A DNA stretch of 32,576 bases from Methanomicrobiales archaeon (GCA_017883495.1 JADGNL010000165.1:1-32576); one strand, 5' to 3'. Counted from the stretch's first letter, positions 5,918-24,697 are shown. Notes: generated by a model from the letters alone, not told the origin. A program made the numbers and translations.

Positions 5918-5947
5918 CGGGTATGCGTGCGCGTTCGTGCGCCATAG

Positions 5948-6763: not shown

Positions 6764-6775
6764 AAGAGGGGATGT

Positions 6776-7378: not shown

Positions 7379-7392
7379 TCATTCACCTGTGG

Positions 7393-8913: not shown

Positions 8914-9113
8914 TGCTCCTCCGCAATCTGACAGTTCATCAGGTAGTCGTCCATCGTCGCGATGATCGAGCCGCACTCCCGTGCCGCGAGCCGGGCGACG
9001 ACCGCCCCGCCCTCGACCGAGGTCGAGCAGAGCAGGTGGTCGTCGGGGCCGAGCGCGGCGGCCACGCAGGCCGGGTGCACGTGACGGGTCGTGATCACGC
9101 CCTCGCACCTCAT
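8892..9113 (-). CDS. small Cys/His-rich hypothetical protein (73 aa)
   Basis: Its ATG overlaps the stop of the upstream DHH gene (ATGA at 9110-9113) and its stop lies 22 nt inside serS. By hand count about 9 of 10 codons end in G/C. It has 6 Cys and 4 His (CEGVITTRHVHPAC...HLLC...EC...NC...QCSH). No family recognised. Confidence 0.7.
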   Translation of the reverse strand: MRCEGVITTRHVHPACVAAALGPDDHLLCSTSVEGGAVVARLAARECGSIIATMDDYLMNCQIAEEQCSHDSA

Positions 9114-10312
9114 GGGCCGACCGCCTCCGCGAACGCGGCCGCGACCGCCGGGAATGCGTCGGCCGGCACGACCGCGCCGGCCCTGCGGGCGTGCCCGCCG
9201 CCGCTGCCGCCGACCTCGCCGGCGAGCTGCCGGAGCAGCGGGCCGAGGGGGACCGTGCCGTCGCCGCGGGCCGAGAGCCGGACGCCGCCGTCCGTCCCGG
9301 CCGCGACCAGGACCGGCCGGCCGAGCGGCCCGGCGAGCGCGGACGCGACGTCGCTCGCGAGCCGCGGGTCCTCGATCCGGAAGGCGATTGCAGCCTCCTC
9401 GACCGGGACAGCGGCCGCGATGGCCCCGATCACCAGGCGCCGGTGCTCCGCCGCGACCGCACGGGCCTCGGCGGCCGCGCCGGGGGCGCGGAGACAGACC
9501 GACGCGGCGAGCCCGCCTCGGCCGGCCTTGCCGCAGGCGTCGACCACGGCCGCAAGTGTCCGGGCATCACCCACGGCTTCGCGCGGCGTGAGCACCCGGT
9601 CTCCCCAGAGCGACTCGAGCGCGCCCGGCGCCGCCTCCCGGGCCGTGTCGAGCACGACGAGCGAGAGGAGGAGGTCGAGGGCCGGGCCCTCCTCGCCGAG
9701 CGAGGCGCGGAGGAGCTCGCGGACCCGGCCCGCATCCCCGGAGATTCCCGGGAGGTACGGGTCGATCGCGAGCTCGAGCTTCTCGGCGATGGAGTCGCCC
9801 GGGAGTGCGAGGCCGCGTTCGACTTCGAGCACGCCATTCGCGATCCCCTCGTTCAGGAGCTCCGCGTTCTCGGCCTCGAAAGCCTGGCCGTCGCCGATCA
9901 CGCCGGCCGCCGCGAGCCCCGCGAGGTCGCGGCAGTCCGCGAGCCGGTTCGCGACCATGTACGCGAGCGCGGACGTCGCGAGGACGCGTTCGCCGTCGAG
10001 CCCGTCGAGGTGGGGGTTCAGCACGGGGCCCTCCCCCATCGCGGCCGGCGCGTGGTGGTCGATGACCGCCACGTGGGCCGGCAGGTCGTCGATGCCGGCG
10101 CCGAGGTCGCAGAGCAGGGTCGGCACCCCGGGCTCGAGGACCGGCATCCGGTCCGCCACCCGGAGGCGGAAGCCGAGGCCCCGCCTCCAGAGCGCGTGAC
10201 AGACGAGCGAGGCCGCCGTGATCCCGTCCGCATCGTGGTGGCCCCAGACCTCCACGTAGGGCTGCTCCCCGAGGAAGCGGGCCATGCGTTCGGCGACGGC
10301 ATCGATCGTCAT
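9110..10312 (-). CDS. DHH-family phosphoesterase, archaeal RecJ/Cdc45-like
   Basis: DHH motifs GHHDADG and VIDHH, and DHHA1 motif GGSGGGHARRAG. It starts 5 nt after the rps15 stop. Confidence 0.85.
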   Translation of the reverse strand: MTIDAVAERMARFLGEQPYVEVWGHHDADGITAASLVCHALWRRGLGFRLRVADRMPVLEPGVPTLLCDLGAGIDDLPAHVAVIDHHAPAAMGEGPVLNPHLDGLDGERVLATSALAYMVANRLADCRDLAGLAAAGVIGDGQAFEAENAELLNEGIANGVLEVERGLALPGDSIAEKLELAIDPYLPGISGDAGRVRELLRASLGEEGPALDLLLSLVVLDTAREAAPGALESLWGDRVLTPREAVGDARTLAAVVDACGKAGRGGLAASVCLRAPGAAAEARAVAAEHRRLVIGAIAAAVPVEEAAIAFRIEDPRLASDVASALAGPLGRPVLVAAGTDGGVRLSARGDGTVPLGPLLRQLAGEVGGSGGGHARRAGAVVPADAFPAVAAAFAEAVGP

Positions 10313-10317
10313 TGTGA

Positions 10318-10776
10318 TTACCGCGAGAGCAGGATCTCGGCCGTCTCGGGCTTGTAGACCCAGCCGGCGGCCAGCCGCTTCGTCCCGACGTAATACTTGA
10401 CGAGGCGGCGGACCTTGGCCTCGGTCAGGTTGAGCTGCCGCTTGTTGTGGACATCGTTTTTGTTCTCAGCGAGATGCTTTCGCATCCCGAGGGCCTTCAC
10501 GATCAGGTTCCGCAGGTCTTCGGGGATCTCGGTCCCGAGGCCGTTCGCCTCGAGGATCTCGACGACCCGTCGTCCCGTCGCGAGTTTCACGTCGGGGACC
10601 GCGTACTGATCGCGGAGGATGGTTCCGATCTCGGCGCTCGACTTCTCCTTCCTGTTGAGGTCGATGACGAGCTGCTCGATCTCGGCCGCGTCGGTCGTTG
10701 ACCACGCGGGCGGGTCGTCCCGGTGGGGCCGGACCGATCCCGACTTGCCTCTCCGTCTCGCATGCATTCTTGCCAT
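10318..10776 (-). CDS. rps15: 30S ribosomal protein S15 (uS15, S15P/S13e)
   Basis: MARMHARRRGKSGSVRP...ILRDQYAVPDVK...HLAENKNDVHNKRQL...RLVKYY. The start at ATG 10776 lies within the longer track ORF. Confidence 0.95.
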   Translation of the reverse strand: MARMHARRRGKSGSVRPHRDDPPAWSTTDAAEIEQLVIDLNRKEKSSAEIGTILRDQYAVPDVKLATGRRVVEILEANGLGTEIPEDLRNLIVKALGMRKHLAENKNDVHNKRQLNLTEAKVRRLVKYYVGTKRLAAGWVYKPETAEILLSR

Positions 10777-10919
10777 AGTTCTACTCCGATACCGATTTGT
10801 CCCGAGAAGAGCAGCGATGAGACGCACGCTCCGTAATCCCAGAGCCCCTGAGGGCCGCACCGCGGGGGCGGCGCGTCGGACTTACCGGTGCTTCGTACAC
10901 ACGTCAGCGACGGTGCCGG

Positions 10920-10929
10920 TTTATATAAT
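10920..10929. promoter_or_regulatory. near-palindromic TATA box TTTATATAAT in the rps15 / lipoprotein divergent spacer
   Basis: Strongest A/T element in the 222-nt spacer. If it drives the rps15 operon, the leader would be about 115-120 nt. Confidence 0.35.
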
Positions 10930-10968
10930 CTCCCGGGCGGTTCTTAAGGCTGCCGACCATGGCCGAAA

Positions 10969-10978
10969 GATTATTATT
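10969..10978 (+). promoter_or_regulatory. TATA-like box GATTATTATT upstream of the lipoprotein gene
   Basis: It lies 21-30 nt upstream of ATG 10999, a spacing expected for a leaderless or very short-leader archaeal mRNA. Confidence 0.4.
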
Positions 10979-10998
10979 CCGGCGGCCTCCCGCTCAGT

Positions 10999-12435
10999 AT
11001 GGTACACTTTCGCACGGTTTCTCTCGCGGCCCTGCTGCTCGCGCTCGTCATGGCGAGCGCCGGGTGCACGTCCTCCTCGAACCAGGGAGGCGGGACCACC
11101 GGCTATGGCCCCCTGCAGACCTACTCGGACCAGGATCACCTCTTCTCGGTGCAGAAACCCCCGACCTGGACCGTCACGGTCGGGGACGATGTTCAGGTGA
11201 AGGCGCCCGCCGACGGGGCCCGGGTCGTCTTCCGCCCGCTCTTTCTCAGCGGGTCGTACCGGGACGCTTCGGCTTCGGCGATCGCCAACTACCTCGTGGG
11301 CCGTGACGCACAGAAGGTCTCGGGCTTCGCCATCACGTCGGTGCGCGAGACGACGGACGGCTCGATGCTCGAGCTCGTGGCGTCCTACGACCGCTCGGGC
11401 ACCCCGATGACCGGGGTCTACACGATCTTCGTGGACTCGCCGTACGCGATGTTCACCGGGTACGAAACGTCGCGCGCGACGTTCTCGAACAACGAACCCC
11501 TGCTGCGATCGATCGCGGGGAGTTTCGATATACTCCAGCCCGCCTCCTCCGGGGGGGCGACGTCCGCCACGATCGGGAGCAGCCTCGGCCCCCTGAGCGA
11601 ACGGCAGCTGGACGGGGGAGTGACGATGAAGATCCCCGCCGGATGGAGCCCGCAGGTCTTCCCGCTCTGCAGCGGCCTGATCGCGGCCGATCCCCGGAAC
11701 ACCCGCGGCGTGGTCTTCCTCAACGGCCTTCACAAGAACCCGGGGGCGACCCTGCCGCCGGGGGTGAGCCCCGAGGACTACCTGACGACCTACCTCCAGC
11801 AGGACTTCTCGACGATCTCGGGCGTGCGCATTCTCTCGTACGAGGACACGGACCTCTCGGCGTTGAATACGGGCTCGGTCACCGCCAAGGCGATGCGGGT
11901 ATCCTTCTCCAACAGCGGCACGCCGACGACGGGGTCGTTCATGGTCGGCACCTCGCAGGCCGGCGGCGGATACTTCACGGCGGTCGAGTACCTCTGGGGA
12001 GTCTACGCTCCGACGTCCGCCTGGGAAGCTGACGCCCCGATCCTCCTGGAGTCCTTCTTCTCGATCGACTATAGCCAGGCGACGATCGCCGGATGCAAGA
12101 ACGTCCTGGCCGCCTCCTGGGGCGGCGGCTCCCGCTCGGGCGGGTCGGGCGGCAGTTCGGGGAGCGATGCGCGCGAGCAGCAGCTCAAGGACTGGTACGC
12201 GAAGCAGGAGAACGAGGACATTTTCATGGAGAAGTTCACGGACTACACCCTCAACCGCGACCGGGTCTACAACCCCGAGACGGACCAGGTCTACACCGTG
12301 GACCAGAACTTCTACCAGTATTACGACACGCACCGGGAGCAGTACAAGCAGCAGAACATGGAGCAGCTGACCGACACCCAGTTCCGGAGCCACGTCGCGC
12401 TCGACGGAAATCTCCACATCGAACCGAACACGTGA
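10999..12435 (+). CDS. secreted lipoprotein of unknown function (two similar domains plus Gly/Ser linker and Tyr/Gln/Asp-rich tail)
   Basis: Signal peptide with lipobox LVMASAGC. There are two ~160-aa segments. Each opens with x-x-x-P-x-x-W (FSVQKPPTWTV; VTMKIPAGWSP) and closes with SF(D/F) (IAGSFDI; LESFFSI). GGGSRSGGSGGSSGS linker. Confidence 0.8.
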   Translation: MVHFRTVSLAALLLALVMASAGCTSSSNQGGGTTGYGPLQTYSDQDHLFSVQKPPTWTVTVGDDVQVKAPADGARVVFRPLFLSGSYRDASASAIANYLVGRDAQKVSGFAITSVRETTDGSMLELVASYDRSGTPMTGVYTIFVDSPYAMFTGYETSRATFSNNEPLLRSIAGSFDILQPASSGGATSATIGSSLGPLSERQLDGGVTMKIPAGWSPQVFPLCSGLIAADPRNTRGVVFLNGLHKNPGATLPPGVSPEDYLTTYLQQDFSTISGVRILSYEDTDLSALNTGSVTAKAMRVSFSNSGTPTTGSFMVGTSQAGGGYFTAVEYLWGVYAPTSAWEADAPILLESFFSIDYSQATIAGCKNVLAASWGGGSRSGGSGGSSGSDAREQQLKDWYAKQENEDIFMEKFTDYTLNRDRVYNPETDQVYTVDQNFYQYYDTHREQYKQQNMEQLTDTQFRSHVALDGNLHIEPNT

Positions 12436-12502: not shown

Positions 12503-12910
12503 TCAGAGGTCCTTCGGCGGCCGGTGCCGCCCCCGTCTCCGCCGCTTACCCATCGAGAGGATGTCGACGCCGTAGAGCCCTTCCTTGCCCAGGCCGATCA
12601 CCATCTCGTCCGACTTCGAGAGCCGCTCGATGTTGATCTCGTACGACCCGGGCCCGGTGATCCGGATGGTCTCGATCGAGTCGTGAAGCGGGCGGGCGGG
12701 CTCCTCCGGAGCCTCGGGGATCTCGTGCACGTCCTCGGGCGGGGCCCCCTCCACGAGCGCCTCGAGCGGCGTCTCCTCGAGCACGTCGCGGTGCCGCTCC
12801 TCCGCCCGGACGTAGAGGAAGCGCTTGCCGCCGCAGCTCGGGCATCCGTGGAGGACGTCCTGCGAGCCGTCCTCGAACTCGCGCCCGCAGGTCGTGCACT
12901 TGTGCGGCAT
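12503..12910 (-). CDS. zinc-ribbon protein, DUF2072-like (OapC-like)
   Basis: N-terminal CTTCG-x14-CPSCG ribbon, an acidic/Pro linker and a basic tail. The start lies 2 nt after the stop of the DUF2073 gene. Confidence 0.8.
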   Translation of the reverse strand: MPHKCTTCGREFEDGSQDVLHGCPSCGGKRFLYVRAEERHRDVLEETPLEALVEGAPPEDVHEIPEAPEEPARPLHDSIETIRITGPGSYEINIERLSKSDEMVIGLGKEGLYGVDILSMGKRRRRGRHRPPKDL

Positions 12911-12912
12911 GG

Positions 12913-13278
12913 TTACCGGGATGAGACCCAGGCGCTGATAAGGTCTCGCTCCTTGCGAAGCATCTTGAGCTGATTCGCGGGGCCGATCACGGTCAGCCGG
13001 GAGGTCGGCTCGCGGCTCCCGAAGAGGCGGGCGAAGAAGCCGCCGCTCGTCGAGCGGGCGGGGTAGGTCTCCATCTCGATCCCCGAGAAGCCGTCGGGGT
13101 TGATCTCCATCATGGTCATCTCGATCAGCTTGCTCGACTCCTCGGGCGAGAGCCCCTTCTCCAGGACCACGATGTTGCCGGCTATCACCTCGTCGAGGAT
13201 CAGCCGGATCTTCTCCATCGAGGTGAGGCGCTCGAGCCGCTCTTCGGAGATCAGGTCCAGTTGTACTCCCTGAATCAT
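12913..13278 (-). CDS. DUF2073-like protein (OapB-like)
   Basis: 121 aa, MIQGVQLDLISEERLERLTSMEKIRLILDEVIAGNIVVLEKGLSPEE... It sits between the GTPase and the zinc-ribbon gene, as in the conserved archaeal triad. Confidence 0.75.
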   Translation of the reverse strand: MIQGVQLDLISEERLERLTSMEKIRLILDEVIAGNIVVLEKGLSPEESSKLIEMTMMEINPDGFSGIEMETYPARSTSGGFFARLFGSREPTSRLTVIGPANQLKMLRKERDLISAWVSSR

Positions 13279-13285
13279 CGCCGGA

Positions 13286-13930
13286 TCACCCGAAGAACTC
13301 GATCATCTTCTCGTAGAGCTCGTCCACATTCGTCCCCTCGAGGCCGGAGATGGAGATGACGGGATGCTGCGGGAACGCGGACTTGATCCGGCCCGGCGAG
13401 GCGTCGGGAAGGTCGATCTTGTTCGCGACGATCACCACGGGCAGATTCCGCGACTCGATGATCCCGACCATCATGATATTGACCTGGGCGAACGGGTCGA
13501 GGGTCGCGTCGAGCATGTAGATCACACCGTCGATATCCTCGCGGAGCCAGTGCATGGCCTCGGCCACCCCCTCGGTCGCCTCCCGCGCACGCTTGACCGC
13601 GTCCTCCTTCTCGATCCCGTATTCGGTGAACTCGTGGTAGTCGATCTTGGTCGTGACCCCGGGCGTGTCGACGATGTCGATCACGATCGAATCCCCGTGC
13701 GCGTTCGAGATGGTCACGTCCTCTTTTCGCCGGGCGCGCCGGGTCTCGTGGGGGATCTCCGAGACCGGGCCGAGCGCATCCCCGGTCCAGTCGCGGACGA
13801 TCCTGTTCGCGAGCGTGGTCTTGCCCGCGTTCGGCGGACCGTAGATGCCGATTCGCGACCGTCCCTTCTTGAAGAAGGCCCGCAAAAACCGTGAGAACCG
13901 TTTCCGTACCTTTGTCAGGATATTATCCAT
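13286..13930 (-). CDS. small GTP-binding protein (Era/EngB-like P-loop GTPase, OapA-like)
   Basis: G1 GPPNAGKT, G3 DTPG, G4 NKID. ATG 13930 (MDNILTKV) is preferred over the track GTG 13939. Confidence 0.88.
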   Translation of the reverse strand: MDNILTKVRKRFSRFLRAFFKKGRSRIGIYGPPNAGKTTLANRIVRDWTGDALGPVSEIPHETRRARRKEDVTISNAHGDSIVIDIVDTPGVTTKIDYHEFTEYGIEKEDAVKRAREATEGVAEAMHWLREDIDGVIYMLDATLDPFAQVNIMMVGIIESRNLPVVIVANKIDLPDASPGRIKSAFPQHPVISISGLEGTNVDELYEKMIEFFG

Positions 13931-13964
13931 GCAGCACACCGATCGATGATGGTAGAAATGTTAT

Positions 13965-13983
13965 GGCTCATGGATAATGAGCC
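13965..13983. promoter_or_regulatory. perfect inverted repeat GGCTCAT-GGATA-ATGAGCC in the divergent control region
   Basis: 7-bp arms and a 5-nt spacer. It lies 35-53 nt upstream of the GTPase start, next to an ATAACATTT TATA-like element on the minus strand. Confidence 0.35.
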
Positions 13984-14121
13984 CTTTGATAGCCCGCGCC
14001 GGCCATGCCCGACCTGGAGAACCCTTTTATCCGAAGGGGGCCTATTCAGTCTCGTCGGGCCGGAGAACGGCCCGAATTCCCGAAAAGACCGCGCAGAATC
14101 GATCTCGGAAAACTTTAATGA

Positions 14122-14129
14122 ACTATAAT
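14122..14129 (+). promoter_or_regulatory. TATA-like box ACTATAAT upstream of the CBS gene cluster
   Basis: It lies 34-41 nt upstream of ATG 14163. A GGGGGGAAG purine run (Shine-Dalgarno-like) lies ~6-14 nt before the ATG. Confidence 0.35.
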
Positions 14130-14162
14130 GACAGATACGCCAGAACAGGGGGGAAGCACCCG

Positions 14163-14726
14163 ATGAACTCGTCCGACGCCATGCACCTGGAGACCAGGGT
14201 ACAGCTCAAAGAGATGATGCGCCACAACCCGACGACCATCGATTTCAACGCCACGGTCGCCGATGCAGCCCGGGCCATGTGCCGCGCCGACGTCGGCAGC
14301 GTCATCGTGCTCGAGAACAGCCTGCCGATCGGCATCGCGACCGAACAGGACATCAACTGCAAGGTCGTGGCCCACGATCGCCGGCCCGGCGAAGTGCCGG
14401 TCGGCGATATCATGTCCACTCCCCTGATCACGATCGGCGCCGAGAAGTCGGTCTCGGAGGCGGCCTACATGATGGTCCGCCACGGAGTCCGCCGCCTCCC
14501 CGTGGTCGACGAGAATCATCAGGTGATCGGGATCGTGACCGTGCGGGATCTCCTGACTGTTGCGAACGAGATCAACGAGATCATGAACGATCTGATCACG
14601 ATCAACCGGGTCGACGACGGGTACGAGAGCGGAGTCTGCGATCGGTGCGGGCTGATCTCCTCGGATCTCATCCGGACCGACGGTCAGCACCTCTGCTCCA
14701 ACTGCCGCGCCGAGGAGCATCTCTGA
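14163..14726 (+). CDS. CBS-pair protein with C-terminal zinc ribbon
   Basis: Two CBS motifs (LKEMMRHNPTTIDFNATV...SVIVLENSLPIGIATEQDI; VGDIMSTPLITIGAEKSV...RRLPVVDENHQVIGIVTVRDLL) followed by CDRCG-x15-CSNC. An alternative ATG is at 14118. Confidence 0.85.
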   Translation: MNSSDAMHLETRVQLKEMMRHNPTTIDFNATVADAARAMCRADVGSVIVLENSLPIGIATEQDINCKVVAHDRRPGEVPVGDIMSTPLITIGAEKSVSEAAYMMVRHGVRRLPVVDENHQVIGIVTVRDLLTVANEINEIMNDLITINRVDDGYESGVCDRCGLISSDLIRTDGQHLCSNCRAEEHL

Positions 14727-15481
14727 TGAAGTCGGCAGCCGACCTCCTCTGCGAGGTTCCGCTGCTCTCCTCCGACGACCGGGCGACCCGGGCCCGATCG
14801 GTCCTCCGCGACGACCACTTCCGCGAGGCGCTCGTCGTGGACGGACGCGGCGCGCTCGCCGGGTACATCGATATCTCGGACATCCTCCGGGTCGGCGCGA
14901 CCCGATCGAACGTGACCGTGGACGGGTTCGTACGTGAGGCCCCGTCTGTGGGGCCCGACGCGAGCCTGGAGCGGGTTGGCGCGCTGCTGCGCGAGTACCG
15001 GACCGACTCGGTCGCGGTCGCCGGGCCGGACGGGCGCGTGCTCGGCGGGATCCTTCTCGCCGAGGTCTTTCCGATCCTGCTCTCCCGCCACGAGCCCCGG
15101 GGCCTGGTCTCGGAACTGATGTCGACCCGCGTCGTGACGGTCGAGGCGGACGACCCCGTCTCGCGGGTCCAGGCCCTGGTGCAGGAGAGCGGGTTCTCGG
15201 CCTTTCCCGTCCTCAAGCGACGGCAGCTCGTGGGCATGATCTCGCGACGGGACCTGCTCGCCTCGGGCCGGACCCGCCAGGGGACGGACGGGAAGCTCGC
15301 GGTCGAGGCCGTCATGACCACGCCCGCGATCGCGACCGCGCCGGACGCGGCCGTCCGCGATGCGGCCGCCCTGATCTGCCGGCACGATATCAGCCGACTT
15401 CCGGTCGTCGAGAACGGCCGCGTCGTCGGGATCATGGATCGTCACGACGTGCTGCGGGCGCTCGCGCTCGCCGTCGACTGA
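14726..15481 (+). CDS. four-CBS-domain protein (251 aa)
   Basis: The start overlaps the upstream stop (TGATG 14724-14728). Four CBS motifs, e.g. VSELMSTRVVTVEADDPV...FPVLKRRQLVGMISRRDLL and VEAVMTTPAIATAPDAAV...LPVVENGRVVGIMDRHDVL. The upstream part of the track ORF (from 14279) is out-of-gene junk. Confidence 0.88.
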   Translation: MKSAADLLCEVPLLSSDDRATRARSVLRDDHFREALVVDGRGALAGYIDISDILRVGATRSNVTVDGFVREAPSVGPDASLERVGALLREYRTDSVAVAGPDGRVLGGILLAEVFPILLSRHEPRGLVSELMSTRVVTVEADDPVSRVQALVQESGFSAFPVLKRRQLVGMISRRDLLASGRTRQGTDGKLAVEAVMTTPAIATAPDAAVRDAAALICRHDISRLPVVENGRVVGIMDRHDVLRALALAVD

Positions 15482-15490
15482 AGGTGACAC

Positions 15491-16438
15491 ATGCAGGGGA
15501 ACGGATTCAACCACAAGGCATCGGACCGGCTCCTCAAGATGCCGGGCAAGCTCGACCGCGGTTCGGTCGAGTTCGACTCTCGCGTGGCCCCGCACACGGG
15601 CGATATCATGGCGATCGCGACCACGAGGGTCGTCTCTGTCCCGCCGACGATGGCGATCATCGGAGCGGCCCGGACCATGACCGCCTGCGGGTTCCGACGA
15701 TTGCCGGTGACGGACCCCGGCACGCACCGCATGCGCGGGATCATGACCGCGTCCGACATCATCAACCTGCTCGGCGGCGGCGATAAGCAGACCCTGGTCA
15801 CGGTCAAGCACGGGGGCAATCTGCTCGCGGCCGTGAACGAGTCGGTCCGCGAGATCATGAGCGCCCACTACCTCTCGCTCAGGACCACGGAGACGATCGC
15901 CGACGCGCTCGCCCTGATCCTGGAGAAGAAGATCGGGGGGCTGCCGATCGTCGACGCCGACGAGACGCTCCGCGGGATCGTGACCGAGCGAGACGTGCTG
16001 CGCCTGCTCGGAAACGGGGCGAGCACGCTCGCGGTCGAGAACGTGATGTCGACCGCGCTGCGGGTGACCGCCCCCGACGCGACGATCGGGGCCGCGACGC
16101 ACGAGATGGGGCGATGCCGGTTCCGGCGCCTGCCCGTGGTCTCTGAGGACGTTCTCTTCGGGATCATCACGTCGACCGACATCGCCCGATACATGGGGAC
16201 CGGCGAGGTCTTCGACCGGCTCGTGACCGGGAACGTGGCGGAGGTGATGGACCTGCCCGTGCGGACCCTGATGAGGGGAGAGCTGATCACGACCACGCCC
16301 GAGGTCCCGATCACCGCGGCGGCGCGGGTCATGCTCGAGCGCGGAATCGGGGCCCTCCCCGTGATCGAGGACTCGCGCCTGATCGGCCTCGTCACCGAGT
16401 TCGACCTCGTCCGGGCGTTCGCGGAGGCGAGCTGCTGA
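15491..16438 (+). CDS. four-CBS-domain protein (315 aa, ~35-aa N-terminal extension)
   Basis: It lies 9 nt after the previous stop. Four CBS motifs, e.g. VREIMSAHYLSLRTTETI...LPIVDADETLRGIVTERDVL and VRTLMRGELITTTPEVPI...LPVIEDSRLIGLVTEFDLV. Confidence 0.88.
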   Translation: MQGNGFNHKASDRLLKMPGKLDRGSVEFDSRVAPHTGDIMAIATTRVVSVPPTMAIIGAARTMTACGFRRLPVTDPGTHRMRGIMTASDIINLLGGGDKQTLVTVKHGGNLLAAVNESVREIMSAHYLSLRTTETIADALALILEKKIGGLPIVDADETLRGIVTERDVLRLLGNGASTLAVENVMSTALRVTAPDATIGAATHEMGRCRFRRLPVVSEDVLFGIITSTDIARYMGTGEVFDRLVTGNVAEVMDLPVRTLMRGELITTTPEVPITAAARVMLERGIGALPVIEDSRLIGLVTEFDLVRAFAEASC

Positions 16439-17274
16439 TGCTGGCGTCCGACGTGATGTCCGCGCCGGTGCACGTGGTCGGGCCGAACGACTCGGCCGCC
16501 CACGCCCGGAATCAGATGATCCGGTTCCGGTGCTCCCGCCTGCCGGTCGTGGACGGCGACAGCCTCGCCGGGATCATCACCAAGAAGGACCTCGGGTATC
16601 GGCTCCGCCAGGCAGAGCCGACCTGGCGGCGCCGGCCGATCGACCGGGTGCCGGCGAGCCTGCTCATGACCCCCGACCCGGTCAGCGTCGCGGCCCACGC
16701 CGCGATCCGGACCGTTGCCGCGGCCATGATCGAGTACGGGATCAGCGGGCTGCCCGTGGTCGAGGACTGCACCCTCGTCGGGATCGTGACCAAGACGGAT
16801 CTGCTCGGCTCGGTCTCGGCCGAGCGGCTCGCGGCGACGGTCGGCGATCTGATGGGTGACGCCGTGACCATCTCCCGCTACCACTCGCTCGACCACGTGA
16901 TCGATCTGGCGAGCGAGCGCGACGACAAGCTCGTGGTGGTCAACAACGATGGGACGCTCGCGGGTATCATCACCGAGTCGAACCTCGCCTTTTATGAGTA
17001 CGTCGGCCGCGTGCCCGGCGAACCCGACCGCGACGTGACCATGCTCCGGCGCGATGACGAGGGACAGAAGACGCTCCGGTATGTACGCGACGTCTCGGCC
17101 ATCGCAGAGGACCTGATGAGCCGGCCGGTCGAGACCACGCCGCCCGGCGCTCCGATCGCCGAGGCGGTCCGGAGAATGCGAGAGAAAGGGATCAACAGCC
17201 TCGTCGTCGTCGAGGACGGCGACATCAAAGGCATTATCACGCGGGATGATATAATTAAGGGGGTTGCCACATGA
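16438..17274 (+). CDS. four-CBS-domain protein (278 aa)
   Basis: The start overlaps the upstream stop (TGATG 16436-16440). Four CBS motifs, e.g. ASDVMSAPVHVVGPNDS...LPVVDGDSLAGIITKKDL and AEDLMSRPVETTPPGAPI...LVVVEDGDIKGIITRDDII. Confidence 0.88.
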   Translation: MLASDVMSAPVHVVGPNDSAAHARNQMIRFRCSRLPVVDGDSLAGIITKKDLGYRLRQAEPTWRRRPIDRVPASLLMTPDPVSVAAHAAIRTVAAAMIEYGISGLPVVEDCTLVGIVTKTDLLGSVSAERLAATVGDLMGDAVTISRYHSLDHVIDLASERDDKLVVVNNDGTLAGIITESNLAFYEYVGRVPGEPDRDVTMLRRDDEGQKTLRYVRDVSAIAEDLMSRPVETTPPGAPIAEAVRRMREKGINSLVVVEDGDIKGIITRDDIIKGVAT

Positions 17275-17282
17275 AACAGACC

Positions 17283-17294
17283 TTATTTATTAAA
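17283..17294 (+). promoter_or_regulatory. TATA-like box TTATTTATTAAA, with AGGAG (17347-17351), ahead of the fifth CBS gene
   Basis: It sits in an 85-nt spacer that is AT-rich within an otherwise GC-rich locus. AGGAG lies 8 nt before ATG 17360. Confidence 0.45.
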
Positions 17295-17359
17295 GTTTCC
17301 TGGTAATTCAGAACATTCACCGACAGTCAAGGTAGGATGAAATAAGAGGAGAAAGAGTC

Positions 17360-18139
17360 ATGGTTAACCAGACTGTTTTTATTAAGGACATCATGTCCAG
17401 GCCTGTAACGATCGCGAAATCGGCGGTGATCACCGAGGCGCTCGACCGGATGCTCGACCAGGAGATCGACCCCCTGGTCGTGACCAACAACGGCGCGGTG
17501 ATCGGGACGGTCTCGCGCCGGGCGATCGCGGAGGCGATCGGATCGAAGCGGAGTGCGAACGTCTCGCCGAACCAGATCCACGTCGCGAACGTGGTCGAGG
17601 AGGAGTTCACCTCGGCCTACGGGGACGAGAACCTCGACGTCGTGATCCCGCTGCTGCAGACGTACAAGCTCGTGGTCGTGCTCGACGGCGAGCACCGGCC
17701 GATCGGCCAGGTGACCCGGGGCGACCTGCTCAAGGTGATGCGGCCCACGGGATCGGTCGATCAGGTGATGGAGAAGGTCGCGGTCGTCTCGCCCGACGAG
17801 CGCGTGGTCCACCTCCGGCGGCGCATGCTCGACGACGGCGCGAACCGCTACGTGGTCGCAAACGGGGCCGAGCTGCTCGGCATGGTGACCGAGACCGACG
17901 TGGCGCGCTCGATGGCCGCGTTCCGCGAGGACGTGGCCGATCGGTTCCAGGACCACCGGATCCGCAACCTGATCGTCAGCGACATCATGTCCACGCCGCT
18001 GATCTCGGTTCCGCCCGAGACGCGGGCCGCCGACCTGATCGAGACCATGCTCCAGCGCAAGATCAGCGCCGTTCCGGTCGTGGACAACGGACACGTCCTC
18101 GGTGCGGTCTCGCGGCAGAGCCTGGTCCAGGCTCTCTGA
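17360..18139 (+). CDS. four-CBS-domain protein (259 aa)
   Basis: Four CBS motifs, e.g. IKDIMSRPVTIAKSAVI...PLVVTNNGAVIGTVSRRAI and VSDIMSTPLISVPPETRA...VPVVDNGHVLGAVSRQSLV. Confidence 0.88.
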   Translation: MVNQTVFIKDIMSRPVTIAKSAVITEALDRMLDQEIDPLVVTNNGAVIGTVSRRAIAEAIGSKRSANVSPNQIHVANVVEEEFTSAYGDENLDVVIPLLQTYKLVVVLDGEHRPIGQVTRGDLLKVMRPTGSVDQVMEKVAVVSPDERVVHLRRRMLDDGANRYVVANGAELLGMVTETDVARSMAAFREDVADRFQDHRIRNLIVSDIMSTPLISVPPETRAADLIETMLQRKISAVPVVDNGHVLGAVSRQSLVQAL

Positions 18140-18270
18140 CCTCTTTTCGGATCGCGCTCTGTTCGTGAGCCTGCGCGCTCTTCCGCCACCGTACGGAGAG
18201 CGCCGCCGCCCGTTATTGCGAGATCACCGGACCTCGATCCGGGGTCGCCATCCGGCATTCCTTTCGAGCA

Positions 18271-18341
18271 AGCCCGGGGTGAGAATCGAACTCACATACT
18301 CCAATCTGCAGTCGGACGCATCGCCACTCTGCCACCCGGGC
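18271..18341 (-). tRNA. tRNA-Cys: tRNA-Cys (anticodon GCA), CCA not encoded
   Basis: The minus strand reads GCCCGGGTGGCAGAGTGGCGATGCGTCCGACTGCAGATTGGAGTATGTGAGTTCGATTCTCACCCCGGGCT. It has a 7-bp acceptor stem GCCCGGG/CCCGGGC, a 5-bp anticodon stem with loop CT-GCA-GA (G37), a T arm GTGAG-TTCGATT-CTCAC and discriminator U73, as expected for Cys. Confidence 0.93.
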
Positions 18342-18486
18342 ACGGGTGTGTTCACGATCGTGAAACTCCACAACGATCTACACCCTGCCGACGAATAAAT
18401 AACGACATGCCGGTAATAATTGCCGCAATCGGGACCGAGACGCGGCAGGGGCGGCGCCAATGGGGCGCCGAGGATCCTTCTTCGCG

Positions 18487-19266
18487 CTAGGCGTCGGGGA
18501 ACGGCGGCGCGCCGGCCACGCGCTCGGGATGCGTGTAGATGTTCATCCGGCCGGCCCGGACGAACCCGACGATCGCCAGCCCTCCCTTCGCCGCGAGCTC
18601 GACCGCGAGCGAGGTCGTCGCCCCACGCGAGACGATCAGCGGGATCCGGGCGCGCAGGCATTTCCTGGCCATCTCCGACGAGATCCGGCCAGTGCAGACG
18701 ACGAAGCAGCCGTCGGTCGTGACCCCGTTCAGAGCCGCGAACCCGATCACGCGGTCGAGCGCGTTGTGCCGGCCGATGTCCTCGACGAAGGTGACCACAC
18801 CGCCGTCGGCGCGGACGAGGCCCACGCCGTGGACACCGCCCGTGAGCCGGTGCAGCGGAGAGTTCAGAAGGTCTTTGACCGACGCGACGATCGTCTCCGG
18901 CGCGACCGCGAGGTCCGACGAGATCTTCGGGAGGCGGCGGGTGTCGAGGAACGAGGTCGTCCCCCCGCAGCCCGAGAGGACGCTCTTCTTCGAGAAGAGG
19001 AGCTTCTGCGGATTCTTCGTGATCACCTCGACCGAACTCTCGCGCTCGGCGAGCGCCTCGATCTCGTCGAGCGACTTGATCAGTCCCTCGGTCAGGAGAA
19101 AGCCGACCGCGAGCTCTTTGAGCATGGTCGGGCTCGTCATCATCGTCGCGGCCGTGCGGCCGTTCACGATCACGGAGACCGGGACCTCGTCGACGACCGG
19201 GTGGAGCACGGGCGCGTAATTCCCGTCCTCATACTTGATGCAGGGCAGTTCGTGATACATGGTCAT
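18487..19266 (-). CDS. fdhD: formate dehydrogenase accessory sulfurtransferase FdhD
   Basis: Motifs LTEG, SGCGG, DIGRHNALDR and VSRGATTS. The start ATG 19266 overlaps the stop of the cysteine desulfurase gene (ATGA 19263-19266). The long track ORF to 20076 is an off-frame extension. Confidence 0.9.
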   Translation of the reverse strand: MTMYHELPCIKYEDGNYAPVLHPVVDEVPVSVIVNGRTAATMMTSPTMLKELAVGFLLTEGLIKSLDEIEALAERESSVEVITKNPQKLLFSKKSVLSGCGGTTSFLDTRRLPKISSDLAVAPETIVASVKDLLNSPLHRLTGGVHGVGLVRADGGVVTFVEDIGRHNALDRVIGFAALNGVTTDGCFVVCTGRISSEMARKCLRARIPLIVSRGATTSLAVELAAKGGLAIVGFVRAGRMNIYTHPERVAGAPPFPDA

Positions 19267-20444
19267 CCCTGGCGGACCAGCTCGCCGACCGTGGCCGTGA
19301 GCAGGTCCACCTCCTCCTCGGTGTTGTAGAGGTACAGGCTCGCCCGGACCGCCCCCTCGGGGCAGCCGCAGTGCTCCATCAGCGGCTGGCAGCAGTGGTG
19401 GCCGGATCGAACGAGGACCTGGACGGCCTCGTCCAGGACATGCGCCACGTCGTGCGGGTGGTAGCCGTCCACGTCGAATGAGACCACACCGATCCGGGGG
19501 GTTCCGCCGTCCGGCCCGAGCACCCGAACGCCGTCGCAGGCGGCAAGGCCGGCGAGGAGTCGAGCGGTCAGCCGCTCCTCGTGCGCCCGGATCGCGTCCA
19601 TGCCGACCGCCTCGAGGTACTCGACGGCCCGGGCGAGCCCGAGGAGGCCCGAGACGTTCGGGGTTCCGGCCTCGTACCGTCCGGCGCCGGGCGCCGCCCG
19701 CACCTCTTCGTCCGAGACCGCCTCGACCATCCCTCCGCCGAGGAGCAGGGGCTCGATCACGGGCTCCTTCATCCAGAGCATCCCGGTCGCCATCGGCCCA
19801 AGCATCTTGTGCCCGGCGAACGCGAGGAAGTCGCAGCCCAGATCCGCGGCGTCGACGGGTCGGTGCGGCACGGACTGGGCGCCGTCCACGAGAATCCGGG
19901 CGCCGTGGTCGTGGGCGAGCCGTCCGATCGCCTTCACGGGCGCGATCGAGCCGAGCACGTTCGAGGCGTGCGTGACCGCGACGAGCCGGGTGCGGTCGTC
20001 GACCGCCTCCTCGAACGCCTCGAGAGGTACGGTGCCGTCGGGGAGCGGATCGAGCAGGGTCACCTCCACGCCGCACGTGCGAAGCCGGAGCCAGGGGAGG
20101 AGGTTCGAGTGGTGCTCGGCCCGGGTGGTCACGACCCGATCGCCGCGCTCCCAGGGGAGGCCGGCGGCGACCATGTTGATCGCCTCGGTCGTATTCTTCG
20201 TCGCAACGAGCAGCCCGTCCTCGCCGTGGACGAATCGCGCCACCGTCCGGTGGGCCTCCTCGTATCGGAGGGTGGCCATGCGGGCGAGTCGGTGCACACC
20301 GCGCCCGACGTTCGCCCGGTACTGGAGGTCGAACTCGCGGACGAGATCGGCGACCTGGACCGGCGTCAGGCTGACCGAGGCGCTGTCCAGGTAATGGAGA
20401 TGAGAGAGAAGGGGAAAATCGCTCCGACAGCCATCAATCGCCAT
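19263..20444 (-). CDS. cysteine desulfurase (class V aminotransferase, SufS/Csd-like)
   Basis: PLP-lysine context AFAGHKMLGP. TTRAEHHSNLLPW. C-terminal active-site region RSGHHCCQP. Confidence 0.88.
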   Translation of the reverse strand: MAIDGCRSDFPLLSHLHYLDSASVSLTPVQVADLVREFDLQYRANVGRGVHRLARMATLRYEEAHRTVARFVHGEDGLLVATKNTTEAINMVAAGLPWERGDRVVTTRAEHHSNLLPWLRLRTCGVEVTLLDPLPDGTVPLEAFEEAVDDRTRLVAVTHASNVLGSIAPVKAIGRLAHDHGARILVDGAQSVPHRPVDAADLGCDFLAFAGHKMLGPMATGMLWMKEPVIEPLLLGGGMVEAVSDEEVRAAPGAGRYEAGTPNVSGLLGLARAVEYLEAVGMDAIRAHEERLTARLLAGLAACDGVRVLGPDGGTPRIGVVSFDVDGYHPHDVAHVLDEAVQVLVRSGHHCCQPLMEHCGCPEGAVRASLYLYNTEEEVDLLTATVGELVRQG

Positions 20445-20815
20445 AGAGATCTCCGTATGGTCGTCGGGAAGAGATTAAGGGTTGCGCATGTCGGGGCCCC
20501 GTGCGTGGCGTCCTGTCTCGCGCTTCCCGCAGCGATCCGTACCGAGTCGGACGCCGATCGTGCTCGGGCCGAAAGGGATGCGGTCGTCCCCCCGCACGCG
20601 GAGCCGTGCCGGAGGACATCCCTGCTGCGGATCGACGCAGACAAGGTCGCGCGCTCTGCGCATGCAGCCGCCACAAGCTGGAAAAGCTCCGCGGAGGTGC
20701 CAAAGGGACCCGTCCGGCCGCGAACAATTCCATAATCCTAAATACTTATTCGATCAAGATTTAATCGAAACGGTGGGAAGGGACCGGGACCGGCGGCACG
20801 AGTCGCACGCATGGT

Positions 20816-21184
20816 ATGGTGGATCTGCCAGCGTCCCGGTACGCACCGGTGAATTCGATGAAGGAACGTGATCAGGGAATGGACCGGCGGGTCAGGGAGT
20901 TCGTCTCGCTCTCGCCGGACGGACGGATCTGGGGAGAGATCATCACCGAGCCGCTGCTGACGGTCGCACAGGTCGCAGCGACCCTGCAGATCAGGGAGAA
21001 ACTCGTCCGGAACCACATCAAGGAGAAGCGCCTGAAGGCCGTCAAGATCGGCAAGTACTGGCGGATCAAGCCCGAGGACCTGCACGGCTTCATCGAGGGG
21101 AACTCCTCGATCCGGACCGAGGCCCACCCGCACCTCTCCGAGCGGAGCGGGGTTGAGGACGGACTGATCAACACCGGCGCCTGA
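20816..21184 (+). CDS. helix-turn-helix DNA-binding protein (excisionase/MerR-type HTH_17)
   Basis: LLTVAQVAATLQIREKLVRNHIKEKRLKAVKIGKYWRIKPEDLHGFI is a typical HTH_17 segment. The start is uncertain (in-frame ATGs at 20816, 20858 and 20879). Confidence 0.7.
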   Translation: MVDLPASRYAPVNSMKERDQGMDRRVREFVSLSPDGRIWGEIITEPLLTVAQVAATLQIREKLVRNHIKEKRLKAVKIGKYWRIKPEDLHGFIEGNSSIRTEAHPHLSERSGVEDGLINTGA

Positions 21185-21194
21185 CGCGTCGGCC

Positions 21195-21202
21195 TTTTTT
21201 TT
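21195..21202 (+). terminator. oligo-T terminator (T8) after the HTH gene
   Basis: GGCC followed by TTTTTTTT, 11 nt after the stop codon. This is a typical archaeal intrinsic termination signal. Confidence 0.55.
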
Positions 21203-21261
21203 AGAAAAGTATCCGGGCCGGAGGCCCGCGGAACCGTGAAGGGGGAGGCGATGCCCCCCGG

Positions 21262-21669
21262 TTATTCCGCGTAGGGGACGTCCGGCACGAACTTCGTGCC
21301 GTAGTGGATCACGCCCGACTCCCCCTCGGTCCCGATCCGGCGGAAGACGGAGCGGACGCGCATCCCGATCCGCGCCTCGCTCACGTCCTCGACCACGACC
21401 TGCACGGTGACGCGCGGTCCCTCGTCGAGCCGGATGATCGCGAGCACGAACGGGGTCTGCTGCTCGAACGCGTCCGACGCCGACCGGATCACGGTGAAGG
21501 TCACCACCTCGCCCTTCCCCTGGAACCGGTACGGCTCGATCACGCCGGAGCGTCGACAGTCCGGGCAGAACGAACGCGGCGGGTAGAACCTGCGCTCGCA
21601 CGAGGTGCACTGCGTACCGATGAGGTTGTAGCGCTGCGGGATCTTGCGCCAGAAGCGCGGGACCGACAT
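21262..21669 (-). CDS. DUF35 OB-fold/zinc-ribbon protein (scaffold of the thiolase/HMG-CoA synthase complex)
   Basis: Rubredoxin-like CTSCERRFYPPRSFCPDC followed by an OB-fold region. The start lies 1 nt after the thiolase stop. Confidence 0.88.
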   Translation of the reverse strand: MSVPRFWRKIPQRYNLIGTQCTSCERRFYPPRSFCPDCRRSGVIEPYRFQGKGEVVTFTVIRSASDAFEQQTPFVLAIIRLDEGPRVTVQVVVEDVSEARIGMRVRSVFRRIGTEGESGVIHYGTKFVPDVPYAE

Positions 21670-21670
21670 C

Positions 21671-22837
21671 TCAGGCCCTCCCGAAGATATGGACCGCGAC
21701 CGAAGCCCCGGTGCCGCCGACGTTCTGGGTCATTCCGATCTCGGCGCCGTCGACCTGCCGCCGCCCCGCGTCGCCGCGGAGCTGCTGGACGATCTCGGCC
21801 ACCTGCTTGATCCCGGTCGCGCCGACAGGGTGGCCGCAGGCCTTGAGCCCGCCCGAGGTGTTGACCGGGATCCGGCCGTTGAGGGCGGTCTCGCCCTCCT
21901 CGGTCAGCCGTCCGGCCTCGCCCTTGGCGCAGAACCCGAGGTCCTCGATCGCGCAGATCTCGGCGATCGTGAAGCAGTCGTGCACCTCGACCAGGTCGAT
22001 CGCGGCGGGCGTGAGCCCGGCCATCTCGTACGCACGGCGCGCGGCCACGACCGTCGCATCGAGGGTCGAGATGTCCCGCCGGTCGTGGAGCGCGATCGTG
22101 TCCGAGGCCTGCGCCGTCGCGAGGACCTTGATCGGCGCGTCCGTGAACTCCCGCGCGCGCTCGAGCGGCGCGAGGATCACGGCCGCCGCCCCGTCCGTGA
22201 TAGGCGAGCAGTCGAAGAGCCGGAGCGGGTCCGCGACGAGCGGGGACCGGAGCACCGTATCGACCGTGATCTCGCTGTGGAACTGCGCGATCGGGTTGCG
22301 CGCTCCGTTGTAATGGTTCTTGACCGCGACCATGGCCAGCTGCTCCCTCGTCAGGGGGTAGCGGTGCATATAGTCGGTCGCGATCATCGCGTAGAGCCCG
22401 GGAAAGGTCGCGCCCACGAACCCCTCCCACTCGCGGTCCGCGGCGGCAGCGAGCGCGTCGACCGAGATCGAGGTCTCGACGTCGGTCATCTTCTCGACCC
22501 CGGCCGCCACCACGATCTCCTCGAGCCCCGAGGCGACCGCGATCACGGCCTGGCGGAAGGCGAGCGAGCCCGAGCAGCAGGCCGACTCGACCCGTGTCGA
22601 GGGAATGTGGCGCGAGGCCATGCCCGCGTAGTCGGCGATCAGGGCACCGACGTGCTCCTGCTCGACAAAGCGCCCGGCCGACATGTTGCCGACGTAGAGC
22701 GCATCGATCCGTTCGCCCGAGAGCTGTGCGTCCTCGAGCGCCAGGGCGCCCGCCTCGAGGAAGAGGTCGCGGAAGGAGGTCTCCCACTTCTCCCCGAAAG
22801 TCGTGCATCCGATTCCGATTACGGCGACGTCTCTCAT
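21671..22837 (-). CDS. acetyl-CoA C-acetyltransferase (archaeal thiolase)
   Basis: [16 protein letters not shown], nucleophile region [12 protein letters not shown]-terminal [14 protein letters not shown] and NVGGTGAS. The start ATG 22837 overlaps the HMGCS stop (ATGA). The 811-aa track ORF is an off-frame upstream extension. Confidence 0.92.
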
Positions 22838-23886
22838 CACTGCATCACGATCTTTCCCTTGTGTCTGGCATAGCGTGCGTAGTCGACATAGATCGGGTTC
22901 GACAGCAGCTGGCGAACCGTCGGAGCCCCGCCCCGCCGGAACGTCTCCGCCTCGATCGCGTCGGTCACCTCGATATCGAACGAGTCCGCGCCGGCCCCCG
23001 AGCCGAAGGAGGTGACGAAGATCCGGTCGCCCGGCTTCGCCATGTCGAGGGTCGCGGCCAGGCCGATCATCGTCGCCCCCGAATAGGTGTTGCCGAGGGT
23101 CGGCACCACGAGCCCGGGCTCGATCTGCTCGGGCGTAAACCCGAGCAGATGCGCGACCCGGCGCGGGAACTTCGCGTTCGGCTGGTGGAAGACGGCGTAG
23201 TCGTAGTCCGTCGCGCTCTTGCCGGTCTGCTCGAACATCAGCCGGGCCGCGCCCTGGACGTGCTTGAAGTACCCGGGGTCGCCCGTGAACCGGCCGCCGT
23301 GGCTCGGGTAGGTCTGACCCTCGCGCCGCCAGAAGTCGGGCGTGTCCGTCGTGAACGAGACCGTCCGGTGGATCTCGGCGATGGGGTCGCGGTTCCCGAT
23401 AAGGAACGCTGCGCCCCCGGCGGCCGCCGTGTACTCGAGCGCGTCCGAGGGCGCGCCCTGCGCGACGTCCGAGCCGATCGCGAGGCCGTACGTGACCATG
23501 CCCGCGCCGACGAGGCCCATGCAGGCCTGGATGCCGGCCGTGCCGGCCTTGCAGGCGAACTCGTAGTCGGCCGCGGTCATGTTCGGGGTCGCCCCGATCG
23601 CCTCGCCGACCGTGCACGCGGTCGGCTTGACCGCGTACGGGTGCGACTCGGACCCGACGTAGACCGCCCCGATCTCGGCGGGGTCGATCTCCCGCCGTGC
23701 GAGCGCGCCGCGGGCGGCCTCGACCGCTATCGTCGCGGTGTCCTCGTCGACATCGGGCAGCGACTTCTCGCGAACGCCGAGCCCTCCGATGATGTCCTGT
23801 GCATTGTCGCCCCAGACCCGGGCGATCTCCTCGAGTCGGATCCGGTACCGGGGGATGTATGCCCCGTAGGTGATGATGCCTGTCAT
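22837..23886 (-). CDS. hydroxymethylglutaryl-CoA synthase (archaeal)
   Basis: [27 protein letters not shown], catalytic Cys context EFACKAGT, and SFGSGAGA. Confidence 0.92.
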
Positions 23887-23964
23887 GCAGTCCCCTGTCT
23901 TCCGGCGGAGCCGGTGCCTGGTGTGTCTGAAATGGTAACTCCTGAAGTCGGTTTCGCCCGGCGC

Positions 23965-24675
23965 TTACCACTCGGTCGAACGCAGGGTCGCGATCAGCGA
24001 GTCGATCGGCGTCTGCGTGGTCAGCAACGTGATCCGATCGCGTTCGGCGAGCCTGGGCACGATTGGGTGGACCTCCTCGGGCGCGATCCCCTGCAGGACC
24101 ACGCACCGCGGTTTGAACGGTGTCACCCGGATCGCGACCATGGGCGATTTCCCGGTCGAGACCCCCGCGAAGATCAGCGCGCGCTCGGTCGACCAGCCGT
24201 AGATCCGGCTGAACTCATCGGACGAGAGCTGCAGGATCGCGTTCAGGCTGTTCACGACCGTGTACCCGAAAAGGGTCTGGTCGAGCGAGCCCGTGATCGG
24301 CTCGGCCTCGACGAGGTCGGCGAACCGACGGAGCGGCACGGGAGCCGCGAACTCGTGGATGTCGTGGATCACCTCGTCGTCGAGCTCGGCAAAGAGCATC
24401 CTGCCGAACCGCTCGATGTGCCGCCCGCCCCGGTCCTCGTCCATGGAGAGGATCGCGTCCACGATCTTCCCGACGACGGCCGTACCGGGGCTCTTGCGCC
24501 GGCCGCTCTCGTAGTCCGAGATGACCGAGGGCGAGACCTCGAGTCGGATGGCAAGGTCGGTCTGCGGAATCTCGAAGCTGAGCCTCCATTTCTTGAGGGC
24601 CCGGCCGGGTGAGTCCGAGAGCGTGATCTCTCCGGCCATCTTCTCGGCCAGTCGGTGCCGCAGCCCGGACTTCAT
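23965..24675 (-). CDS. XRE-family HTH transcriptional regulator with C-terminal uncharacterised domain (COG1709-like)
   Basis: HTH_3 segment [37 protein letters not shown] followed by a ~160-aa domain. Confidence 0.75.
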
Positions 24676-24697
24676 GCGGATCAGGTCTGCACCGGGG

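Follow-up and report, generated by a model that had tools for sequence, protein, structure and literature searches.

A probable sriABCD ribosome-hibernation operon and its conserved CBS/zinc-ribbon leader gene in an uncultured Methanoregulaceae archaeon

Five co-directional open reading frames encoding CBS motifs alone (2+4+4+4+4) occupy positions 14163-18139 on the + strand of a DNA stretch of 32,576 nucleotides (nt) from an uncultured Methanoregulaceae archaeon (GCA_017883495.1, JADGNL010000165.1:1-32576), referred to here as the window. Sequence comparison makes it highly probable that genes 2-5 of this cluster are the ribosome-hibernation operon sriABCD and work as Sri factors. The sri system has already been described in methanogens (2026), and the window adds a further member, in Methanoregulaceae. 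Gene 1 is a conserved leader of the cluster that is coupled translationally to sriA in Methanomicrobiales, and its tight and widespread linkage to the sri genes is the part that has so far not been described. A first-pass annotation of the same DNA had been unable to name a described system with this architecture; however, genes 2-5 match the sriABCD operon (PMC13454478), whose SriC and SriD are also known as ARC-P and ARC-A (10.64898/2026.01.19.700304). The five genes are:

14163-14726, + strand: gene 1, 187 amino acids; CBS pair and C-terminal Cys4 zinc-ribbon/rubredoxin-like domain, TA0289 type
14726-15481, + strand: gene 2, 251 amino acids; sriA orthologue, four CBS motifs
15491-16438, + strand: gene 3, 315 amino acids; sriB orthologue, four CBS motifs and a 39-residue N-terminal extension
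16438-17274, + strand: gene 4, 278 amino acids; sriC orthologue, four CBS motifs and a 34-residue loop at residues ~190-223
17360-18139, + strand: gene 5, 259 amino acids; sriD orthologue, four CBS motifs

Genes 2-5 as orthologues of the Sri factors

The coordinates of the five CBS-only genes were confirmed from the sequence, together with the one-base TGATG overlaps of genes 1/2 (14724-14728) and genes 3/4 (16436-16440), the 9 nt that separate genes 2 and 3, and the 85-nt spacer between genes 4 and 5 (17275-17359), which carries an AGGAG before gene 5. The GC content of the window is high (about 62-78%), and GC at the third codon position reaches 0.80-0.94 in the frames of genes 1, 3, 4 and 5. 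PF00571 (CBS) was the sole Pfam match in each of the five proteins and an HPF domain was found in none of them. At E<=0.01, Pfam detected 2, 3, 4, 4 and 4 CBS stretches in genes 1-5, respectively; the fourth stretch of gene 2 was seen at a relaxed threshold only, which brings the total to 18 motifs with one weak member and agrees with the 2+4+4+4+4 layout read from the sequence at first pass. Of the 18 modules, 13 carry the ribose-binding motif G-h-h-(T/S/D)-x-x-(D/N). Pairwise identity among the CBS paralogues is 23-35%, in keeping with their earlier description as clearly diverged. A scan of the five proteins against NCBIfam returned generic CBS matches below threshold and no specific family name.

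Each four-CBS protein has its own counterpart among the proteins of PDB entries 9ZNF, 9ZNG and 9ZNI, which contain SriA-SriD of Methanosarcina acetivorans (MA4648-4651; Nissley et al., Nat Commun 2026, PMC13454478). The best matches were 9znf_4 for gene 2 (E 5.7e-33, residues 5-246), 9znf_5 for gene 3 (E 2.5e-72), 9zni_6 for gene 4 (E 1.4e-50) and 9zni_7 and 9zng_7 for gene 5 (E 5e-42), and cross-matches between Sri types were far weaker (1e-9 to 1e-17). As an independent check of orthology, an all-against-all BLAST was performed with the M. siciliae cluster (locus L081). The diagonal for gene 1 and SriA-D scored 126/132/242/177/147 bits, with off-diagonal values of <=67 bits. The clade assignment of genes 2-5 is a best-hit comparison that combines this PDB search and the BLAST matrix. 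The cluster resembles that of M. acetivorans in having four four-CBS paralogues in A-B-C-D order on one strand with one-to-one best matches, and further in the presence of the SriB extension, of the SriC loop (here uncharged) and of an upstream CBS/zinc-ribbon gene of the MA4647 type.

The two structural hallmarks were inspected by alignment. In gene 3, 39 residues precede the first CBS motif, and the phmmer alignment begins at residue 47 of M. acetivorans SriB. In a MAFFT alignment with M. siciliae SriB, residues ~2-35 of the window protein align with the extension, so that more than 15 residues of it (M. acetivorans SriB 27-56) are covered; the M. siciliae protein served here as a stand-in for that of M. 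acetivorans, the two species being about 95% identical as measured on SriA. Within the extension D12, L14-M17, G19, K20, D22-G24, F28 and S30 are invariant (n=12 Methanomicrobiales sequences). The SriC loop comprises 34 residues, compared with 35 in M. acetivorans SriC (191-225), and retains the GQKTxRYV motif.

In M. acetivorans, sriA-D constitute one operon encoding four four-CBS proteins, each of which inhibits translation in vitro, and the sriABCD deletion leads to depletion of 30S subunits and to a delayed recovery from long stationary phase (PMC13454478). Cryo-electron microscopy located SriA and the N-terminal extension of SriB at the A/P sites, the peptidyl-transferase centre and the exit tunnel of the 50S subunit; SriD occupies the 30S A site, the mRNA channel and the decoding centre, and SriC the P/E sites and the 3' end of the 16S rRNA (PMC13454478). 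The sites of SriA/B and SriC/D overlap, so that a single ribosome can hold one pair or the other but not both (PMC13454478). Of 6,968 archaeal species, 1,636 have sri genes, with 529 showing the syntenic sriA-D order (PMC13454478). In Methanolobus, ARC-P and ARC-A, which by the statement of the Sri authors are orthologues of SriC and SriD, hold AMP in their CBS pockets while on the ribosome, and ATP brings about their release, which supplies a nucleotide-sensing mechanism (10.64898/2026.01.19.700304). The window differs from this two-factor system in that it also encodes SriA, SriB and the zinc-ribbon protein.

By analogy with these orthologues, the four Sri paralogues of the window would bind, silence and protect idle ribosomes. 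On the large subunit, SriA would occupy the A/P tRNA sites, with the SriB extension threading into the peptidyl-transferase centre and exit tunnel; on the small subunit, SriD would block the A site, mRNA channel and decoding centre, and SriC would fill the P/E sites and sequester the 3' end of the 16S rRNA. The SriA/B and SriC/D pairs would be found on different ribosomes. Adenine nucleotides in the CBS clefts probably govern binding, with AMP retaining the factors and ATP releasing them as in ARC, which fits the adenosyl ligands suggested at first pass. Since genes 2-5 are orthologous to ribosome-binding factors, their output partner is expected to be the ribosome, contrary to the previous view that stand-alone four-CBS proteins have no known output partner. 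The idea of a defined hetero-oligomer in place of random paralogues holds for hetero-pairs, but a single complex of five subunits is unlikely because SriA/B and SriC/D exclude each other on the ribosome.

Several observations weigh against assigning the Sri function to these genes. The SriC loop has a net charge of 0 compared with +5 in Methanosarcina; in M. acetivorans this loop contacts uS11 and the 16S 3' end, and a less positive loop marks the 'SriC-short' proteins (PMC13454478). The SriB extension lacks about 20 residues relative to that of Methanosarcina, and identity to the Methanosarcina Sri proteins is 33-42%, with SriA at merely 33%. An insertion specific to the window, described below, uncouples sriD from sriC. 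Moreover, the functional assignment is carried over from orthologues in other organisms, and nucleotide control is known solely for the Methanolobus orthologues of SriC and SriD, from a preprint (10.64898/2026.01.19.700304). The spacing of the genes is a further difference: apart from the spacer before gene 5, window genes overlap or lie 9 nt apart, whereas Methanosarcina sri genes have spacers of roughly 300-400 nt.

One might instead regard genes 2-5 as tandemly duplicated generic CBS proteins devoid of a joint function, for example regulators of unrelated enzymes. CBS modules are indeed ubiquitous, as 40,686 representative proteins match gene 1 at E<=0.001, and the NCBIfam matches are generic and sub-threshold. 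However, every one of the paralogues is represented in distant orders by a separate orthologue in the equivalent position, and the published structures place these orthologues at specific sites on ribosomes, which renders the generic explanation extremely improbable and leaves sriABCD as the preferred identification.

Other CBS proteins of known structure are related to the cluster at varying distance. Among structures from before 2026, the one closest to gene 3 is that of MJ1225 of M. jannaschii (PDB 3KH5/3LFZ; E 2.5e-53, alignment 40-311), a stand-alone four-CBS protein that the first pass had mentioned. As the alignment begins at residue 40 of gene 3, MJ1225 lacks the ribosome-entering extension and would therefore belong to the 'SriB-short' class of the Sri paper. 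Dri of Pyrobaculum calidifontis (PDB 9E6Q) and HibA/AHA (PDB 9SR9) are CBS-based archaeal hibernation factors (PMC13324472, PMC12934967). The lobes of Dri are homologous to SriA and SriC (gene 4 against 9e6q_3, E 1.2e-19); Dri is a single fusion of 655 residues and HibA carries an HPF/RaiA domain, whereas the window proteins are separate and have no HPF domain. Similarity to AMPK gamma, with its four tandem CBS motifs that bind AMP/ATP via Thr/Asp pairs, is weak (E ~1e-8 to 1e-11). Unlike AMPK gamma, the window proteins have no kinase alpha/beta partners, and their regulated target would be the ribosome; no kinase or beta-subunit gene was present among the Pfam-scanned genes (207-7378, 7393-12435, 12503-13939 and 18487-25716).

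Conservation of the gene order and the sriC/sriD junction

A genome scan anchored on SriB yielded 80 loci with SriB identities of 61-95%, all of them from Methanomicrobiales; the closest related genome locus, L001 (CAVSRL010000024), shares 95% SriB identity. All five genes are present in the same order in 67 of the 80 loci, the incomplete rest being mostly truncated contigs, and the arrangement is therefore not due to chance. Gene 1 was found wherever upstream room allows, frameshifted in one locus (L053) and broken by Ns in another (L027). It overlaps sriA in 66 of 66 Methanomicrobiales loci, by ATGA in 55 and by TGATG in 11. Wider sampling was achieved with Methanosarcina SriA, rebuilt from the PDB alignment, and with a metagenome scan, and the sriA-D order was also recovered in Methanosarcina, Archaeoglobi and metagenomic lineages. 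Synteny, named at first pass as a check on the cluster, reaches well beyond one species.

The junction of genes 4 and 5 departs from this pattern and contains one additional feature:

17271-17359, + strand: window-specific insertion at the sriC/sriD junction, delimited by alignment with L001, L003, L007 and L010

About 92 extra bases are present at this site, bordered by two imperfect copies of a 21-nt direct repeat (17275-17295 and 17366-17387) that corresponds to the first codons of sriD. What is left of the ancestral sriD start is a 10-codon mini-reading frame coupled to sriC (17271-17306, MKQTLFIKVSW and a stop), and a new AGGAG Shine-Dalgarno sequence precedes the present sriD start. The inserted sequence was found in none of the 83 loci compared (L001-L083), and 73 of 75 related loci have an ATGA overlap between sriC and sriD. 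The insertion may have arisen by duplication, as the footprint of a small element or by recombination. Of the earlier description of the gene 5 spacer, its length of 85 nt and the AGGAG were retained, but the 'TATA-like box' turned out to be a duplicated remnant of sriD 5' coding sequence and not a conserved promoter. Both the spacer and its Shine-Dalgarno sequence are specific to this genome.

The region behind sriD (18140-20815) is variable among close relatives (L001-L014), which carry either an HTH_17 (excisionase-type) gene within about 230-300 nt or 1-6 kb of inserted DNA. A tRNA-Cys gene, located at 18271-18341 on the - strand in the window, lies between 131 nt and 6.5 kb from sriD across the relatives, and an Rfam scan of the window returned a single tRNA and nothing else. 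FdhD and cysteine desulfurase genes are present in some relatives only. This region may be a hotspot of integration or rearrangement. In Archaeoglobi and several metagenomic lineages, a gene for an Rnl3-type RNA ligase (PF09414 and PF18330 Lig_C) directly follows sriD and often overlaps it (L084:11943-13079, L085, L086, L087:12000-13133, L142, L160 and L165), and in Methanosarcina (L081:15725-16897) it is located one gene further away. It was not found after sriD in the Methanomicrobiales loci or in the window, where genes up to 25716 were scanned. The ligase is another candidate for a functional association with the sri genes.

Gene 1, a leader gene of the TA0289 type

Gene 1 encodes a CBS pair followed by a ribbon with cysteines C159, C162, C178 and C181 (CDRC-x15-CSNC, i.e. 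Cx2C-x15-Cx2C). The Cys4 ribbon had been recognized at first pass, though with its spacing given as CDRCG-x15. The Cx2C-x15-Cx2C pattern is invariant in 74 gene-1 orthologues and in ~40 representatives at the 50%-identity level. By sequence, the CBS pair matches TA0289 (1PVM/2QH1; E 3.4e-16) and also ST2348 (2EF7), in both of which the CBS pair is likewise followed by a C-terminal Cys4 ribbon; the zinc ribbon alone gave nothing significant against PDB sequences. An AlphaFold2 model of gene 1 (predicted local distance difference test, pLDDT, 81 overall and 56-83 in the C-terminal part) was compared with known structures by Foldseek and matched TA0289 (2qh1_A; E 5.9e-13, 175/187 columns, TMq 0.62) and ST2348 (E 1.1e-13). 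TA0289 is listed in the PDB as 'CBS-rubredoxin-like protein, Fe2+-bound'; for gene 1, metal binding is a prediction from the four cysteines only. It differs from TA0289 in sequence (24% identity) and in domain orientation, with a root-mean-square deviation of ~10 Å over the whole chain. TA0289 was reportedly characterised by Proudfoot et al. (J Mol Biol, 2008), who are said to have found no physiological function.

In Methanosarcina too, a CBS/zinc-ribbon gene of the MA4647 type is located directly upstream of sriA. The protein encoded there has GICESC-x15-CENC at its C-terminus, and it and gene 1 are reciprocal best matches: gene 1 scores 126 bits against this MA4647-like protein compared with <=60 bits against Sri proteins. 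The fold match, the shared cysteine pattern and the reciprocal best match identify gene 1 as the orthologue of MA4647 and as a TA0289-type protein.

To sample the family beyond Methanomicrobiales, gene 1 was searched against 1.8 billion representative proteins, and the CBS-zinc-ribbon hits were used for a profile search. The profile, built from 40 CBS-zinc-ribbon representatives, was swamped by four-CBS proteins, in which two CBS pairs add their scores, and six true hits were usable. These six full-length proteins were picked blind to their genomic context, and all six are encoded directly upstream of sri-like genes. In three of them, from Archaeoglobi (Ca. Mnemosynella), the zinc-ribbon gene is followed by sriABCD, and a fourth, from another lineage, has the same arrangement; in the remaining two, the downstream partner is a SriA-like gene only and a SriD-like gene only, respectively. 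Two top-scoring four-CBS singletons, from ANME-1 and Bathyarchaeia, had contexts that revealed nothing about gene 1. In the Methanophagales (ANME-1) locus L090:2815-7816, a stand-alone four-CBS gene directly follows mcrBGA, with no CBS-zinc-ribbon gene nearby.

A metagenome scan with a CBS-zinc-ribbon alignment returned 80 diverse loci that were 36-52% identical to the query, 66 of which were informative. One or more sri-like four-CBS genes lie directly downstream on the same strand in 49 of the 66 (74%), with the compositions AB (18), D (17), ABCD (5), ABC (1), A (4), B (2) and C-first (2); the Sri types given here are approximate, having been called from the best BLAST hit. The other 17 loci have unrelated downstream genes, such as an amidohydrolase gene (L096 and L117, about 6600-8000) or genes for a Mut7-C RNase and AMMECR1 (L166, 6608-7756).

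Gene 1 may act as a sensor or regulator. We tentatively consider it quite possible that the Sri system includes this protein as a functional fifth component, either as a nucleotide-sensing and possibly redox- or iron-sensing partner that times engagement and release of the Sri proteins, or as a ribosome binder itself. Possible, if somewhat doubtful, is the alternative that gene 1 has nothing to do with Sri and is an independent CBS-rubredoxin-like protein binding nucleotides or involved in redox processes, its position reflecting inherited gene order. This would be consistent with the finding that in exponentially growing M. acetivorans no reads bridge MA4647 and sriA, which were reported as not co-transcribed, and that recombinant Sri proteins bind ribosomes without MA4647 (PMC13454478); the 17 of 66 informative loci without a sri-like gene downstream point in the same direction. 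Unlike in Methanosarcina, however, gene 1 of the window is coupled to sriA, and the stop/start overlap is kept in every one of the Methanomicrobiales loci. The same-strand upstream position is maintained in Methanosarcinales, Archaeoglobi and several further lineages, and in the diverse metagenomic loci the association holds for sri-like genes of any composition (AB, D, ABCD or A). Gene order by itself seldom outlasts such distances. In the literature searched, no paper connects the CBS/zinc-ribbon protein to hibernation.

The divergent GTPase triad and the wider neighbourhood

Two further features lie upstream of the cluster:

12503-13939, - strand: oapC/oapB/oapA (= arvC/arvB/arvA) triad; PF09845 OapC (2.2e-37), PF09846 OapB (4.3e-46) and an MMR_HSR1/Arf-like GTPase (PF01926/PF00025)
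13940-14162, no strand assigned: divergent intergenic region between oapA and gene 1, with conserved blocks in an alignment of 11 Methanoregulaceae intergenic regions

The triad is OapABC/ArvABC, with its defining GTPase-DUF2073-DUF2072 order. In Haloferax volcanii, where the genes occur in the same order, arvABC (renamed from oap) drives the production of extracellular vesicles that contain RNA, and most archaea with ArvA keep the three genes together (PMC10927574). In the window the triad is a neighbour of the CBS cluster and not a part of it. An association with a replication origin, prompted by the name 'origin-associated protein', was rejected, with no search for origin repeats or cdc6 having been made.

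The first-pass annotation had proposed that the five CBS proteins form one hetero-oligomeric sensor of adenosyl ligands with the divergent GTPase triad as its output. The neighbourhood itself lends this idea some substance. The divergent triad stands beside the CBS cluster in every Methanomicrobiales locus that reaches far enough upstream (at least 66), and the arrangement of divergent oapCBA next to CBS-zinc-ribbon-sriABCD recurs at class-level distance in three Archaeoglobi loci (L084-L086, 6400-8000). The oapA/gene-1 intergenic region is short throughout, at 115-270 nt. The adjacency is therefore more than an accident of one species. However, it is restricted to some lineages: among 54 diverse CBS-zinc-ribbon loci with sufficient sequence on that side, only 2 have the triad upstream and 52 lack it, and in Methanosarcina, where Sri acts directly on ribosomes, it is not beside sri, an RPA-like gene being found upstream instead. 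As Sri proteins act on ribosomes without the triad, the CBS cluster does not have its output there; the triad is tied experimentally to vesicles in Haloferax (PMC10927574), and the mutual exclusion of SriA/B and SriC/D speaks against a five-subunit complex. A sensor that acts through the triad is therefore considered very unlikely and the triad was rejected as the output; in some lineages, triad and sri genes may be subject to common regulation.

The three conserved blocks in the intergenic region are about 45 nt beside oapA, a block with the sequence CCTTTTATCCGA, and the TATA-like GGAAAACYTTAATGAACTATAATGAC at 14107-14132, 31-56 nt before the ATG of gene 1. A G-run Shine-Dalgarno sequence precedes gene 1 at 14147-14155. 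These blocks are probably the two divergent promoters.

Further upstream (6776-10860), a block related to translation and replication encodes ribosomal protein S3Ae, a methanogen-type seryl-tRNA synthetase (tRNA_bind_4 and class II core), an archaeal RecJ-like DHH nuclease and ribosomal protein S15; related genomes share this synteny. A protein of 478 amino acids with an N-terminal hydrophobic segment (10999-12435) is encoded between oapC and the S15 gene; it is conserved in the closest relatives only (65-93%) and had no Pfam or NCBIfam match.

What appeared to be an orphan five-gene sensor corresponds to a described hibernation system, and there is consequently no case for a new signalling complex or for a tie to the GTPase. 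For the TA0289/ST2348/MA4647 family, crystal structures have been available for almost two decades, and to our knowledge no function has been assigned. That this family is bound genomically to the sri genes across several archaeal orders provides a concrete lead that can be tested. Methanogens and their relatives are starved of energy for much of their life, and if gene 1 regulates hibernation, it could tie the energy or redox state of these cells to the storage of their ribosomes.

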